Of a stretch of 64,000 bases of DNA, positions 22,264-28,883 are shown piece after piece. Source of the stretch: an uncultured bacterium (GTDB lineage: Bacteria; Chloroflexota; UBA5177; JANWHV01); NCBI GenBank assembly GCA_963827235.1, contig CAWHAE010000010.1, forward strand, positions 1,015,363 through 1,079,362, given 5' to 3'. Both the position numbers and the translations under genes were made by a program. The notes beneath the pieces were generated by a model. That model had not been told where the DNA came from, searched no databases, and saw only the letters and a list, made by a program, of their open reading frames with translations. The number at the start of each line of letters is the position of its first letter. The stretch's first letter is position 1.

Positions 22264-23030
22264 ACGGGTATCTGACACTGACGCGGAAAGAGCTGCGCGA
22301 GAGCCTGGCCTCGTACAGGATGCTGATATCGGCCGCCGTGTTCCTGATCGCCGGCATCAGCGGCCCGGTGCTGACCCACATGCTGCCGGACCTGCAGCGC
22401 AACTCGACGAGAAGCAGCAGCATCACGATCATCGTGGGCAAGCAGACCGTGGTCGATGCCGTGGATGCCTATCTGAGCAACATGGCGCAGCTCCCCATGG
22501 TGGCCGCGATCCTGCTGGCGATGGGATCGGTCGCCGAGGAGCGAGCACACGGCGTGGGCGCCATGCTCCTGAGCCGGCCGATCGCACGCAGCGCGTACGT
22601 GCTTGCAAAGCTGACAGGCCATGGGCTGGTGCTGTTGGGCGGCCTGGCGCTGGGCGCCATCGCCGCATTCTACTACATCGTCCTGCTGTTCGACGGTGCG
22701 CGACCCGGCCCGTACCTGGAGATCAACCTGGGCCTTGCCGTCACGCTGATCGACGTGCTGGCGATCACCCTGCTGTGCAGCACCCTGCTGCGGAGCGGCG
22801 TGGCGGCCGGGGGACTGGCCTTCGTGCTGTTCGTGGCACTCTCGACGCTGCCGGCGCTCTGGTCGCCGCTGGGCGACAGCCTGCCCATGAGCATCACGGG
22901 CCACGCTCACGCGCTGCTGAGCGGCGCCTGGGGCGTGTCCGCTCTGCCGCGTCCGCTGCTTGGCGGCCTGCTGCTGGCGACCGCCTGCACCGCCGGCGCC
23001 TGCCTGGCACTGCGGCGGCAAGAAGCATAG
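22260..23030 (+). CDS. ABC-2 type transporter permease (YxlG-like)
   Basis: KELRE N-terminus, SVAEERAHG...LLSRPIAR..YVLAK, six TM helices. Confidence 0.9.
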   Translation: MNGYLTLTRKELRESLASYRMLISAAVFLIAGISGPVLTHMLPDLQRNSTRSSSITIIVGKQTVVDAVDAYLSNMAQLPMVAAILLAMGSVAEERAHGVGAMLLSRPIARSAYVLAKLTGHGLVLLGGLALGAIAAFYYIVLLFDGARPGPYLEINLGLAVTLIDVLAITLLCSTLLRSGVAAGGLAFVLFVALSTLPALWSPLGDSLPMSITGHAHALLSGAWGVSALPRPLLGGLLLATACTAGACLALRRQEA

Positions 23031-23155
23031 CGGCCGACGATTGCACCGCGCGGTGGCGCGGCCGTCGTGAGCGCGCCGTGGGGCGCCACACTACCTTGAC
23101 TGCGCACACCGCCCTGCACGCCGATGGTGCCAGCGGTGAGGGTGCTGCCGCCGTT
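22839..23155 (+). repeat. ~316-bp direct repeat, copy 1 (permease 3' end plus downstream DNA)
   Basis: Near-identical to 28116-28431. Confidence 0.9.
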
Positions 23156-23446
23156 AGCGCAGAGCGCCGAGGCACTCGTGCCGTGAGGCTGCCCCCGCGG
23201 TTCATGAGCAAGTGACAGGAGCTGCTGGAGCCGTCGAGCGCCACCAGCGCGCCCGCCGCCGTCGGTCCAGCGGCGGCGGGCGCGGGACTGATGATCAGCA
23301 CAGACCCCTGGGGCAATGGGGCGGTGAACGTAGAGGCGATGGCCGGCGAGCTTTGCCCGAGCAACGCGTCATTGGACGTGCGGCCAGCGGCGGCTGTGTC
23401 ACACGTCGAACGCCCGCAGTGCTCGCGCCGCCGCTCATTCGCGATG

Positions 23447-23673
23447 AGCCGAGCGGCTCCCGCACCCACGCCCGAAGTGGGGGGAGCCGCTCAGGCCGAA
23501 CCTCTAGGAAGGTTCGCGCCTATGGTAGCACTGTTCCGCTGCTTCGGCATGGCGGCGCGACAGCCGCTCAACCGAGATCGAACGCCGGCAGCCCCCGCGA
23601 TTTCCAGCGCCGGTTCGCCCGCCACCGGGCCCGGCACGTGAGCCGCTTGTGGTGGTGCGGGGTCGCCTGCCAG
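23447..23673. repeat. ~230-bp dispersed repeat with GC-rich hairpin, copy 1
   Basis: Matches 49234-49462; stem GAGCGGCTCCC...GGGAGCCGCTC at 23451-23492. Confidence 0.85.
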
Positions 23674-23801
23674 AGCGCCCGCGCATCCGCAACGCGCAAG
23701 ATGTCGCTGAGGCAGCGCTGGCAGATGGCACTTTCTCGGCCCTGCACCAGCAAGCCGGTACGCACTTCAGACTCGCCGCAGAACAGACAGTGGTCGATCA
23801 T
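23568..23801 (-). CDS. Stand-alone ClpX-type C4 zinc-finger protein
   Basis: CLFCGESE...LLVQG..SAICQRC followed by a basic tail. Confidence 0.7.
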   Translation of the reverse strand: MIDHCLFCGESEVRTGLLVQGRESAICQRCLSDILRVADARALWQATPHHHKRLTCRARWRANRRWKSRGLPAFDLG

Positions 23802-24286
23802 CGTCCCCGCATGGAGGCCGCGAGCCGCGGGCCGCAGAGGAGACATATCGCGGCCGGGGCGATCGGCTCGGCAGCACGCCAAGCGCAGATGCGTCATCGC
23901 ACGAATCTGAGCACTCACAGGGGTAGCGTCTGCGTAACACCCAGGAACGCCATTCCATCACACATCCCGTGTGAGTGCGCAAGCAACGGGCATCGATTGC
24001 CCATTCACGAGCGTTTCACACCGATGGCCAAACCCGCGCCCGCCAACATAGACGAAATCCCCCGGGCCTCTCCTGAAACCGGCGTGATTTCGATCGACGC
24101 TGCTACCCGGTTCGGACTGGAGGAGTAAGATAGATACCCCAGCCCGCCACCTCGCGCGCGGAAGCCTGATTCCAGACGGTGTGAAGTGGTCGAGCCGACG
24201 ATCTAGAAACCCGGAAGATCGTTATCCGCGGGTAGAAGCGACGGACCAGCCCGGAGATCTCCAGGCAGCGCTCAGTTTGAGGGCGG

Positions 24287-24919
24287 TCACCACGGCGACG
24301 GCCTGTGCAGAGCCCTATTGGCCTTCTCGATCCCAGCCCCAAGTCCGGGCGGCGCCACAGGTGCATCGGGCGGCATCCACGGGCCCGGGTTTTTCGGAGG
24401 GAGGTAGCTCGCGGTGAGAGCGTCAAGTGGCTCGAGGGTCTTGTGGAAGTTCCTTCGGATATAGCTGACCAGGAGCACCGTCACATAGTCTACGTGAAGC
24501 AAGACCCGCCCGTTGATATCGGTGAGGTGCGCCGCCCACAGGCCCTCAGGCATTGGCTCAGTTTGCTGCGACCTGGTCAGGTACCGCTGAACACGTATGT
24601 CCCGATACTGCAGTGCCTTGTACAGCTCACGGACCGCGCCACATATGTCCTCATCAGTCTGGTCTAGGTAGGGTTGTGCACGCTCAAGAGCAGTCCACGG
24701 TGTTAGGTTTGTGGATGGAGCGCCATCAGTCGTCTCCAGCGAGCATCGCAACAGAGTGCATTGAAACCACAACAATCCAAGTGCAAGACCCTTTTCAACC
24801 CGTTGCTGCTGCACTCTTTCGCGCCGGACGACCCAGTAACCAATAGCGCCAGCGGTAGCGGCCGCAATTGTACCGACTGCGGTCATCGCAGACCAGAAAG
24901 CCGTCCACCATTCATACAC
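24287..24919 (-). CDS. Hypothetical N-terminally membrane-anchored protein, lower GC
   Basis: WSAMTAVGTIAAATAGAIGYW anchor; atypical codon usage; GGGGTGAG upstream. Confidence 0.6.
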   Translation of the reverse strand: MYEWWTAFWSAMTAVGTIAAATAGAIGYWVVRRERVQQQRVEKGLALGLLWFQCTLLRCSLETTDGAPSTNLTPWTALERAQPYLDQTDEDICGAVRELYKALQYRDIRVQRYLTRSQQTEPMPEGLWAAHLTDINGRVLLHVDYVTVLLVSYIRRNFHKTLEPLDALTASYLPPKNPGPWMPPDAPVAPPGLGAGIEKANRALHRPSPW

Positions 24920-25204
24920 GGCTCACCCCTCAGCGAGGCACACAACGGCGCAGTTCGCGCAACGGACCGCAGCCACCGCACGCCGACTCGAGTGCGGCGA
25001 GCCGTGGAACTGAGAATCACGACTCACTGCCGGCGGCCGGGACCAGAGCCCGGCCCACATCCATCATCGCGCCAGAATGACCACAGTCAATGCGGACATC
25101 GGGAAAAGATTCACTTTAACGCACCCTATGCCAAGATGCGCCGCTTGAAAGCGCCCACGCAGGCGCGTACAATCCAAGCACAGGGCCGCCACAGGGCTTA
25201 CCTG

Positions 25205-25277
25205 TGCCCCGGACTGGGTTCGGACCAGCGACCTCCCGTTTAGTGGACAGGCGCTCTTCCAACTGAGCTACCGGGGC
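25205..25277 (-). tRNA. Non-canonical or pseudo tRNA: Thr-like type I body with ACT anticodon
   Basis: GCCCCGG TA GCTC AGTTGGAA GAGC G CCTGT CCACTAA ACGGG AGGTC GCTGG TCCGAAC CCAGT CCGGGGC A; all four stems pair; C33 and C55 deviate; no encoded CCA. Confidence 0.75.
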
Positions 25278-25286
25278 CTAACCTCA

Positions 25287-25616
25287 AGGATGGGTGACCG
25301 GGTTCGCCAAAACTGACGGTCACCCATCCTCTCTCAGTGGTGGATCGCGCCCACGTCCCTGACGTGGTAAACGGTGGCTGCTGTCTCTCATAGTCCCTGA
25401 CCGCCGGCTCATCCGGCATTGCTCCCGATGTGGGGGAAGATCCGAATACGTACCAGTCTCCTTCGCGATGCACCCTAGGCTGCCTCACGAGAGCTGCGCT
25501 TACCTCACGCACGGGGGCAGACGACCGAAACCCATTGCCCAACCTGTGCGGCAAGTCCTGGGTGCAATCCCACCTGGCAGGCATGGTCTGACCAACGCAG
25601 ACTTGGCTGGACCATC
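25287..25616. ncRNA. Candidate structured non-coding RNA next to the tRNA-like gene
   Basis: Perfect 14-bp stem 25287-25300/25317-25330; CCACGTC/GACGTGG hairpin 25351-25367; nested TGCACCC...GGGTGCA stem; ATGGTC/GACCAT hairpin. Confidence 0.4.
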
Positions 25617-25692
25617 GATACCCGTATAATACACCCCGGATGTGCACACGAAAAGACGCACCGTTCGTCCGACCGATTCTTAGTACAAACGT

Positions 25693-25817
25693 ATGGCGTC
25701 AGAGGCATGGCAGTAGAAATGTGACACTTTATAGATGGCGTCAGAGGCATGGCAGTAGAAATGTGGCACTTTAAGGATGGCACTTTAAGGATGTCACTTT
25801 AAGGATGGCATTAAAGG
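25693..25817. repeat. AT-rich tandem array with 14-bp period (two 42-bp units, then three ATGGCACTTTAAGG-like units)
   Basis: Units 25693-25734, 25735-25776, 25777-25790, 25791-25804, 25805-25817. Confidence 0.85.
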
Positions 25818-25905
25818 GTAGGAATAAAGGGCGTATCAATCGAAGGGCTATGAATTGAAGGGGCATGATTCTAGATGGTAGTGCGAGCTCAACGATCTGA
25901 ACGCC

Positions 25906-26337
25906 TCAGATTCTGGAGCGGTCGGCGGCGCAAGCAGCCCGATGCCAACTCACCGCCTCAGCCCTAACCTGCACCACCATGGCAAGCGGGTACCCCAACA
26001 GCGCATACTGGCACGCGTGAGCCGCCAGCATCGCCGCCATGTACGCGGGCGAATCGCCGCTGCCCTGAAACCGGCACTGGGTTTCGAACAGGATGTTGCG
26101 ACGCTCCCCGTGCGTCAGCGGGTCGGCGCTATCGCTCTCCAGAGCACGGCGCATGGCTAGGTTGCCATCGGTCCAGCGCTCCCATATGGGCAGCAAGTGC
26201 TCGTAGGCGTAAGCACACTGCTCGCTAGAATGCTCTGGTGGACCGCTCACCGAAGCAGATCCTCCGCAACAGCACTCGACGCGACCGACCATCGTCCGCA
26301 CATCCGCGGTACGGCGTTCCGGAGCCACCCCAACCAT
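25906..26337 (-). CDS. Hypothetical protein, weak Imm5-like resemblance, possibly a fragment
   Basis: CAYAYEHLLPIWE...MRRALE. Confidence 0.35.
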   Translation of the reverse strand: MVGVAPERRTADVRTMVGRVECCCGGSASVSGPPEHSSEQCAYAYEHLLPIWERWTDGNLAMRRALESDSADPLTHGERRNILFETQCRFQGSGDSPAYMAAMLAAHACQYALLGYPLAMVVQVRAEAVSWHRAACAADRSRI

Positions 26338-26488
26338 CGGTTAACTCAAGCGCATGAGCCTGCTTGAGCGAGCCTCACAAGGTCCATAATGGTCTTGGGC
26401 GTGGCAGTTGCCGGCATGCAGTGTCACCGCACCACACCCAGCGCGTAGGTCGAGCGCGCTACGCACCCCAACACGATCGGAGTCCGCC

Positions 26489-26599
26489 ATGGACACGATC
26501 CGCCTCCTGGCTTGCATCGCAATGATGCTGGCCTTACTAGTCTCCGAGACCTACGTCGCCCACGAGGTGATAGGGCTCGCTACAAGATTGCTTGCCTAA
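26489..26599 (+). CDS. 36-aa hydrophobic peptide (type I toxin-like)
   Basis: MDTIRLLACIAMMLALLVSETYVAHEVIGLATRLLA; GGAG RBS; CATAAT at 26385; own terminator. Confidence 0.55.
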   Translation: MDTIRLLACIAMMLALLVSETYVAHEVIGLATRLLA

Positions 26600-26625
26600 G
26601 CGCATAGCACGCGAAGGGACTAGCC

Positions 26626-26666
26626 ATGGACCCCTGCCCATTGGCCTGGGCAGGGGTCCATTCTTT
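26626..26666 (+). terminator. Intrinsic terminator-like hairpin
   Basis: Perfect 15-bp stem ATGGACCCCTGCCCA / TGGGCAGGGGTCCAT followed by TCTTT. Confidence 0.75.
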
Positions 26667-26786
26667 GGTCAGCCCAGGCCGCTCTTGCAGTGTCACGGCC
26701 CGGGCACGGCGCCGAGAGTCGATCTCGCCGCACCCCACGCCATCGTAGCACGCCTGGAGAAACTCGCAAGGGCGAGTCAAGCTTGA

Positions 26787-27190
26787 CTACCATACTGCCC
26801 GCCGCGGCGCCACAAGTGCGCTCGCCGCCGGCGGCATGGCTTCCTGCGCGGCCTGGCAGCGAAGCGCCAGGCTCATCAGATAGTCGTCGTGCCCCTCATT
26901 CTCCGGCACGTAGAATCGCATCTGCTCGTTGGCGGCCAATTGGTACCGCGCCTCGTCAATCTCGAGCCACACTTGCCTCGACTCGGCCGCGTCGTCACGA
27001 CCGTAGACCCGGCAGCGACCCGTGCCGGCCATGCCCAGTAAGTCGAAGCCAAGCTTCGACTTCGCCGGAGCCGTCAACACGAAGCGTTCCACAGCGCTCT
27101 CCCCGAGCGCACTCGCCAGCCACGAGGCCACGCCGGCGCCCAGGCCAGTCGCGTCGGCGCAGATCCGCACACATTCCACACCTCGGTCAG
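26787..27190 (-). pseudogene. Phage terminase large subunit, C-terminal nuclease fragment
   Basis: ICADATGLGAGV and GHDDYLMSLAL RNase H-fold motifs; ATPase domain missing. Confidence 0.75.
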
Positions 27191-27247
27191 CAGTTGGCCC
27201 GTAGCGTGGTGTTGCGTCGGGTGGTCGGCGCCGGTCCAACTAAAGGG

Positions 27248-27880
27248 CTACGCAATCTCGACAGAGAGCTCCAGCGCCGCAGTCCGGGACAGCCGCGCCG
27301 GGGTCATCACGGTGCTGTCTCGCTCTGCGAGCAGTGCGCGCGAGGCCGTCTCGTACTGGATGCGCACGCCGCGCCGGTCGTTCAGCGCCATCTGCAGCGT
27401 GGAGAGCGTGGAGGCCCGCTGCCGGCGCGGCGCGGCGCCGCTCGCCTGGCGGACCGAGCGCAGCAGGGGCGCGAAGCCGGCGGGCAGCGCTTCCTCCGTG
27501 CGCGCCAAGGCGGCGCCCAGGCTGGCCGCGTCCAGGGCGCCGCTGTCTCGCGCGAACTGCAGTGCCGTCACCAGGGCCAGCGCTTCGGCGGCCGTGTAGC
27601 CGATCGCGGGGAGCTGGGGCAGTCGCGTGAAGTAGTAGCCGCTCCGCGCGCGCCGGATCTCGCAGCGCAGTCCGTGCCGCAGGACCTCCAGGTCTTTGTC
27701 GATCTGGCGCTCGCTGATCTCCAGGCGCTCGCTCAGCGCCGACCGCGTCCACTGCCGGGGCGCGTTGCCGATCAGCGTGACCAGGCGCAGGATGCGCGCG
27801 ACGCGCTTGGTCTCTTCCAGTCGAGCGGCGTGCGATCCGGGCGCATCAGCTCGCCACGTGTCTTCCATGATCCCAATCAT
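27248..27880 (-). pseudogene. HTH-WYL (YafY/PafB-like) regulator, truncated within the WYL domain
   Basis: LSERLEISERQIDKDLEVLR HTH, YTAAEALAL, ALNDRRGVRIQY then breaks off. Confidence 0.8.
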
Positions 27881-28115
27881 ATACCCGTACCGCGCCCCAA
27901 GCAGTGCGCGTTATCACAAGGTTTCACGCAGATTCCGCTCTGGTTGGAAACGTTCCATGGCACGGGGCCTGCGGTTGCGATCGCATGGCAGCAGAGGGGG
28001 GACTGCGGTCCCGGGTGGAGGGGGACGGTAGCCTCCAGCCGCGGCAGCCTGCGGTTGCGATGCGATTTCTCTGTGCCCAAAGGCTCGACCAAGGCCCAAG
28101 TGCTGGAAGCGAAGC

Positions 28116-28431
28116 TCTCGACGCTGCCCGCGCTCTGGTCGCCGCTGGGCGATAGCCTGCCCATGAGCATCACGGGCCACGCTCACGCGCTGCTGAGCGG
28201 GGCCTGGGGCGTGTCCGCTCTGCCGCGTCCGCTGCTTGGCGGCCTGCTGCTGGCGACCGTCTGCACCGCCAGCGCCTGCCTGGCACTGCGGCGTCAAGAA
28301 GCATAGCGGCCGAAGATTGCGCTGCGCGGTGGCGAGGCCGTCGTGAGCGCGCCGTGGGGCGCCGCACCGCCTTGACCGCGCACACCGTCCTGCACGCCGA
28401 TGGTGCCAGCGGTGAGGGCGCTGCCGCCGTT
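28116..28431 (+). repeat. ~316-bp direct repeat, copy 2
   Basis: Duplicates the permease C-terminus (LSTLPALW...LRRQEA stop) and downstream DNA of 22839-23155. Confidence 0.9.

Positions 28432-28883
<452 letters not shown>

Follow-up and report, generated by a model that had tools for sequence, protein, structure and literature searches.

A tRNA gene with an arginine-type body and the anticodon ACU in a Chloroflexota genome

Results

The window, meaning the whole 64-kb stretch of DNA that was analysed, contains a single tRNA gene. ARAGORN placed it on the minus strand at 25204-25277 and named it 'Ser(act)', and Rfam matched RF00005 to 25205-25277 of the same strand over the full model, with 55.7 bits against a gathering score of 29 (E 2.7e-09) and no non-standard pair in the alignment. 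Its 73-nt sequence reads GCCCCGGTAGCTCAGTTGGAAGAGCGCCTGTCCACTAAACGGGAGGTCGCTGGTCCGAACCCAGTCCGGGGCA. Each of the 21 stem pairs is formed, two of them as G-U: seven of seven in the acceptor stem, including G1-C72 and C2-G71 (G1 is at 25277), four of four in the D stem, and five of five in both the anticodon and the T stem, each of which has one G-U pair. The discriminator is A73 (25205). The anticodon loop, C32 C33 A34 C35 U36 A37 A38 at 25246-25240, reads CC-ACU-AA, with C33 at 25245, the anticodon at 25244-25242 and A37 at 25241. A20 lies at 25258, the variable loop is 5 nt long, C55 occupies 25223 in the T loop UCCGAAC, and no CCA is encoded. The tertiary positions U8-A14, G15-C48, G18, G19, U54-A58 and C56 are intact. 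The complete cloverleaf described in an earlier note on this DNA, with its paired stems, G1-C72/C2-G71, A73 and short variable loop, was thus recovered in every part by ARAGORN and Rfam, on the minus strand. With 21 of 21 pairs and the conserved tertiary positions kept, the gene shows neither the broken stems nor the lost tertiary positions of a pseudogene. A plus-strand reading was rejected, both programs calling the minus strand only, as were the other anticodon registers (CAC at 33-35 and CUA at 35-37), since by eye the arrangement with a 5-bp stem and a 7-nt loop is the only one that pairs fully.

The free-energy fold of the tRNA was stabler than all of 200 shuffled sequences (z -3.05), and the tRNA with its flanks also gave a stable fold (z -3.7). 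The minimum-energy structure differs from the cloverleaf, as is common among tRNAs. In a soil-metagenome run, which is possibly the source sample itself, a Logan unitig is identical to the window over the whole tRNA gene, so that an assembly error is unlikely. In one DNA run two 151-nt unitigs match the window exactly, one of them covering the tRNA; the other two sequencing runs gave short unrelated pieces only, and among the sequencing runs listed there was no RNA run containing the sequence. The feature at 25205-25277 is a genuine tRNA gene.

The gene lies in a 5.3-kb patch bracketed by the two copies of a 323-bp direct repeat on the plus strand, at 22839-23161 and 28115-28437, which are 94.4% identical. 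The left copy consists of the final ~190 nt of an ABC-2 permease gene and the ~135 nt after it. The repeats resemble the attL and attR of an element that brings a replacement gene end, an integrase being absent. Upstream of the patch there is an ordinary gene cluster with an ECF sigma factor, an anti-sigma factor and ABC transporter genes. Synteny with genomes of the same genus ends at the stop codon of the permease and resumes on another contig of the host genome. Parts of the patch are found again at other places in the host genome, without the tRNA, and no tRNA was found in the related patches, of which one is on contig C16 of the host and 12 are loci of the same genus.

Downstream of the tRNA by 285 nt, and on the same strand, is ORF210 (24287-24919, minus), a rare membrane-anchored protein with an N-terminal hydrophobic segment. 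It has two relatives, 98% and 61% identical, in a collection of 5.8 billion proteins, and no family match in Pfam, PHROG or PADLOC. The loci of the two relatives have no tRNA and nothing else in common with the window. A conserved synteny of ORF210 with an ABC transporter was considered and rejected, the ABC protein at locus L027 being a 680-aa double ATPase of 28% identity and generic similarity. On the other side of the tRNA, sequence and folding indicate a strong hairpin with a stem of 13-15 bp (25287-25330, minus) that stops 10 nt short of the tRNA 5' end on its upstream side, so that a promoter adjoining the gene would have no space. No sigma-70-like promoter adjoining the tRNA was found on its own strand, the nearest weak site being ~500 nt upstream. 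Two sigma-70-like sites with 10 of 12 matches each were seen on the plus strand, at 25145-25173 and 25603-25630, and the first of these would drive antisense transcription through the tRNA into the hairpin. The DNA upstream of the tRNA is non-coding and of lower GC for ~650 nt (GC is 0.593 in 24001-26000) and includes a 42-nt tandem repeat in 2.3 copies (25693-25790). Three 14-nt CCTTAAAGTGCCAT-like repeats precede the tandem repeat (25693-25810), between the tRNA and ORF143; both kinds of repeat may be iterons or operator sites.

ORF143 itself (25906-26337, minus) is a multi-copy gene, with diverged copies elsewhere in the host genome and in genomes of the same genus; an atlas search returned unnamed clusters only. 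It is followed by a truncated phage terminase large subunit (26787-27239, minus), a 150-aa ORF that retains, of a protein of ~488 aa, only the C-terminal ~125 residues. This fragment has 109 longer relatives, of which 14 carry PF17289 and one is named as a terminase-like family protein, and the names attached to these relatives point to Chloroflexota. Next is an HTH/WYL-type transcription regulator (27248-27880, minus), assigned from a Pfam HTH match below the cut-off and a PADLOC WYL match of 8.4e-16. A dispersed short repeat at 27956-28061, which is REP- or MITE-like, has 24 further matches on host contigs C9, C10, C12 and C18. A small ORF in the patch gave a hint of a ClpX-like zinc finger. 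No integrase, synthetase or nuclease was found among the ORFs examined in the patch and its neighbourhood with Pfam, PHROGs and PADLOC; PADLOC returned no defence component from 10 neighbouring ORFs other than the WYL regulator, and scanning the 5-kb patch permissively with Rfam gave no RNA family besides the tRNA. With its terminase fragment, its repeats and its multi-copy ORF, the patch therefore looks like a strain-specific wreck of a prophage or a similar mobile element.

The anticodon ACU pairs with the serine codon AGU, and is neither NCG nor YCU as in tRNAs that decode arginine codons. However, this is not a serine tRNA, as the earlier note had recognised: it has a 5-nt variable loop and A73, whereas the tRNA-Ser genes of the host are 83-87 nt long with G73. 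The bacterial arginine identity set comprises A20, which is the strongest element, C35, U or G36 and A or G73, and position 34 is not listed (PMC9976931, Table 1). The set is complete in the window tRNA as A20, C35, U36 and A73. A20, the base after G18G19, is found in all five tRNA-Arg genes of the host and in none of its 38 other tRNAs. When 401 genomes from the phylum were searched, namely its own and 400 others, 112 gave matches at E <= 1e-4, and no other genome exceeded 79% identity. Two genomes flagged as unpublished (G226 and G175) are included in these tallies and contributed weak partial matches only. The top four matches outside its own genome were all tRNA-Arg genes (UCU, UCU, CCG and UCU) at 76-79% identity; below these were partial matches of the core to tRNA genes for Gly, Trp, Val, Phe and Lys. 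Alignment with the tRNA-Arg genes runs from end to end, the differences being C33, A34, C55 and C60 together with a D loop that is shorter by one base. Judged by its sequence, the tRNA body is of the arginine type.

Bacterial and phage tRNA-Arg(UCU/CCU), which decode AGR codons and provide the best matches, share with it A20, C35, U36, A37 and A73, the 7/5 architecture of acceptor and T stems and the 5-nt variable loop. They have U33 with U or C at position 34, whereas the window tRNA has C33 and A34 and is thereby directed to a serine codon and not to arginine; the shorter D loop, C55 and C60 also set it apart from them. The earlier note had allowed for decay of a tRNA-Thr, and this can be dismissed as highly improbable: G1-C72, C2-G71 and U36 agree with the rules for ThrRS and the D arm equals that of the host tRNA-Thr(CGU) except at position 20, but position 20 is A where host tRNA-Thr genes have U or C, the discriminator is A73 where they have U73, position 35 is C where threonine needs G35, and the best database matches are tRNA-Arg and not tRNA-Thr.

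The host genome (8.0 Mb in 21 contigs, with 9% estimated contamination; the four genomes of the same genus are 4.4-5.4 Mb) has 51 tRNAs according to ARAGORN. Seven of these have no Rfam support, for example a 90-nt 'tRNA-His(atg)', and the 44 supported ones were used for all counts. Position 33 is T in 43 of the 44, the exception being the gene at 25205-25277, and this gene is also the only one with A34. Each of the two adjacent bases is thus unique in the host, and the CC-ACT-AA loop is as aberrant as had been claimed; the U33 expected of a canonical elongator is replaced by C33. The earlier note had treated both U33 and U55 as nearly invariant. The first part stands, with the single exception among 44, but C55 is no anomaly in this host because three of the 44 carry it, two of them being the ordinary tRNA-Arg(GCG) and tRNA-Thr(GGU). 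The departure from U55 is therefore weak evidence. These two genes are at C14:290736-290808 and C16:556726-556797, and U55 is otherwise near-universal. An encoded CCA is present in just 16 of the 44, so its absence here is normal. By Rfam score the tRNA ranks 38th of 44 and is the lowest of the host tRNAs with a short variable arm, the next above it being tRNA-Arg(CCU) with 56.1 bits.

The five ordinary tRNA-Arg genes of the host have the anticodons GCG, CCG, UCG, UCU and CCU, and the extra gene is therefore redundant. It is not a recent duplicate of a host tRNA, the closest paralogue sharing just 55 of 74 positions. CGN codons are decoded via tRNA-Arg(GCG) and not via the usual ACG. No TadA equivalogue was found in the host genome (best 36 bits against a cut-off of 150), which fits the use of GCG. 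A second ArgRS was not found in the host genome either; there is a single ArgRS match, near 666.7 kb of C9, a contig other than that of the tRNA.

None of the four genomes of the same genus had a match to the tRNA. Exact words from its anticodon arm gave no match in the GTDB species genomes, viral contigs or JGI metagenome contigs, and no close homologue was found in phages or plasmids, where phage records reached at most ~80% with mixed isotypes and plasmids were no better over the full length. In the collections searched, the tRNA is an orphan and its loop changes are private. The earlier note had named beforehand three conditions, one of them a lack of expression, that would together speak against its own proposal of a selected shape, and two of the three were observed: canonical tRNAs are the nearest relatives, and these do not share the loop changes.

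A degenerate pattern was then used in which the tRNA frame was kept, the anticodon stem was free and the CCACTAA loop was required. It gave no match in viral contigs and one record in 185,579 species genomes, a metagenome-assembled genome (MAG) of the Xanthobacteraceae. The tRNA found there (L058:938-1010) scores 59.5 bits with one G-A at 27-43 and has A20 in a typical arginine D loop as well as A73; its CCA is encoded, and it has a strong terminator. All five of the best matches examined in its relatives are tRNA-Arg genes, three CCU and two UCU. Its stems differ from those of the window tRNA and the two are therefore independent. An IS1595-family transposase adjoins it, and it too is a singleton, found in its own genome alone among 401 sampled from the order (0 of the 400 others). 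Since no homologue shares the loop in either lineage, neither covariation nor conservation is demonstrable for it.

Discussion

We give a probability of about one half to the reading that the gene at 25205-25277 is a redundant phage-derived copy of a tRNA-Arg gene which is drifting in its anticodon loop. The ancestor would have been a tRNA-Arg of the UCU type, in which the adjacent changes U33 to C and U34 to A produced the anticodon ACU. These would be private, unselected mutations in a spare gene borne by a mobile element, too few to have broken a stem. If the tRNA is transcribed, ArgRS would still be expected to charge it, as the tRNA keeps A20, C35, U36 and A73 and position 34 does not count among the arginine determinants. 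A34 would remain unmodified, no TadA having been found, and A37 following U36 is a candidate t6A site. The anticodon would pair with AGU, a rare codon (~3.2 per 1000 over 1,846 long ORFs taken as a heuristic set), and C33 would weaken the U-turn of the anticodon loop, giving poor decoding and a net effect near neutral.

The presence of five normal tRNA-Arg genes, the wreckage around the gene, the lack of a dedicated synthetase and of an adjacent promoter, and the finding of both CC-ACU-AA examples as singletons in mobile DNA are all consistent with drift. In these respects the gene resembles the pseudogenes and orphan tRNA copies of prophage remnants, which are likewise redundant, lie in a decayed mobile neighbourhood, and have no close orthologue; its covariance score, too, is the lowest among comparable host tRNAs. 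However, the stems of the window tRNA are undisrupted, in contrast to such pseudogenes, and its deviations are two adjacent loop bases that recur in a second lineage. The intact stems and tertiary positions, together with two unique changes side by side in the anticodon loop, are not what is first expected of decay, though the stems argue only weakly either way because two or three mutations may well miss every stem. Also against drift is the identical 7-nt loop of the unrelated arginine-type tRNA in the Xanthobacteraceae, with its CCA and terminator. By a rough estimate, which is not a computed test, drift alone would be expected to produce such a recurrence well under once. In addition, the combination of a base other than U at position 33, A34 and a mismatch of identity and anticodon is the signature of tRNAProX, a family with proven mistranslation (PMC11415595; PMC10404621).

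Comparison with these known systems is instructive. In tRNAProX (tRNAProA/N/T) of Streptomyces and Kitasatospora, every member described carries A33 and A34 (PMC10404621; PMC11415595), and natural mistranslating tRNAs often replace U33 according to PMC11415595. As in the window tRNA, the identity elements of one amino acid are combined with the anticodon of another, A34 is accompanied by a base other than U at position 33, and annotation by anticodon gives the wrong isotype. However, tRNAProX has a proline body (C1:G72) with A33, A15:A48 and G21, whereas the window tRNA has an arginine body with G1-C72, C33 and G15-C48. Furthermore, tRNAProX occurs in dozens of genomes beside the dedicated synthetase ProRSx, whereas the window tRNA is a singleton with no extra synthetase. 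With another body and no shared descent, the window tRNA is not a member of tRNAProX and is at most an arginine analogue of it. The CUG-decoding tRNA-Ser(CAG) of yeast, in which G33 appears to curtail decoding (PMC11415595), similarly shows a base other than U33 alongside a mismatch of identity and anticodon, but it is eukaryotic, conserved in its clade and proven by experiment, while the window tRNA has C33. The allo-tRNAs (PMC5389517) also come from soil bacteria and also have anticodons that mismatch their identity. Unlike the canonical 7/5 cloverleaf of the window tRNA, they have 8/4 or 9/3 acceptor and T stems, and their identity is serine. Their paper is the reference given for 'diverse mismatched identities' by PMC11415595, and there is no mention of ACU or of tRNA-Arg in its main text (PMC5389517). 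A bacterial arginine-type tRNA with the anticodon ACU was not found in the literature searched, though the supplements of the allo-tRNA and tRNAProX papers may list such a tRNA; the sole 'tRNA-Ser(ACU)' found is listed in a table for an algal virus.

These parallels raise the alternative of a functional tRNA of dual identity, carried by mobile DNA, which would be charged by ArgRS and insert arginine at AGU with C33 acting as a throttle. On our analysis this is unlikely. In its favour, the complete arginine identity set stands together with a serine anticodon on a perfect cloverleaf; A34 with a base other than U33 corresponds to the hallmarks of tRNAProX, and the suggested curtailment of decoding by G33 in yeast offers a precedent for the throttle (PMC11415595). 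The damage would be limited because AGU is rare, and an identical loop is present in a second, independent arginine-type tRNA, which has a CCA and a terminator. Against it, both tRNAs are singletons, the window tRNA being found in none of the four genomes of the same genus and none of the 400 others of the phylum, and the second in none of the 400 other genomes of its order. There is one ArgRS, which is not nearby, whereas tRNAProX is conserved in dozens of species beside its dedicated synthetase; no promoter adjoins the gene and its neighbours are gene wreckage. In its wider form the proposal would be that mobile DNA in at least two unrelated phyla carries tRNAs chargeable by ArgRS which have converged on the loop CC-ACU-AA and recode Ser(AGU) to Arg, A34 setting the codon and C33 throttling its use. 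We regard this generalisation as doubtful. Were A34 to arise first and be toxic, and C33 then to neutralise it, this would also explain the recurrence without any selected function.

A third possibility, and an improbable one, is that the RNA is tRNA-shaped but does not decode, serving as a decoy for an anticodon nuclease, as a tag for processing or stability of the ORF210 transcript, or as an arginine donor off the ribosome. Selection on shape as a mimic, decoy or tag was the suggestion of the earlier note, and an intact shape with a loop impaired for decoding, the position of the tRNA upstream of ORF210 on the same strand and the stable fold with its flanks are in keeping with it. However, the suggestion was not supported by relatives or neighbours: no homologue within the lineage shares the loop, and none of the 10 neighbouring ORFs is a nuclease or defence component. 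The two loci with relatives of ORF210 have no tRNA, and the pairing of tRNA and ORF210 is therefore not conserved. Less probable still is that the gene is the relic of an attachment site, a hybrid produced by site-specific recombination within the anticodon loop. The context is mobile and tRNA-Arg genes are common integration targets, but a second copy of either half of the tRNA is absent throughout the genome, no integrase is present among the ORFs examined, and the bracketing repeats are pieces of a permease gene and not of a tRNA.

Whichever of these readings is preferred, annotation pipelines name tRNAs by their anticodon, and would for this reason list the gene as a serine tRNA of a kind absent from bacteria. 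If it is a drifting copy, it is a cautionary example for annotation, and it also illustrates that C55 can be normal in certain lineages. An active tRNA would be the first of dual identity that is charged with arginine; deliberate mistranslation would then be attainable through two point changes, with no dedicated synthetase, and mobile elements could spread it. An arginine counterpart of tRNAProX could, if real, dispense with such a synthetase, position 34 being ignored by ArgRS. Because the identical loop also occurs in a second phylum, reporter assays offer a cheap test of the mistranslation idea.

Two further observations concern the Xanthobacteraceae. A promoter-like element with a GC hairpin (L058:750-930 and L071:1465-1640) is present at 72-86% identity in many relatives of the MAG. 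In two genomes different tRNA-like genes follow the element at L058 and L071, and homology stops where the genes begin; the gene at L071, considered as a witness to the ancestral loop, was rejected for being degenerate (37.6 bits) and non-homologous. The MAG also has 17 Rfam tRNA matches, many of them low-scoring, within 5 kb of another contig (C225, ~22474-27304), and this array of tRNA genes is possibly phage-derived.
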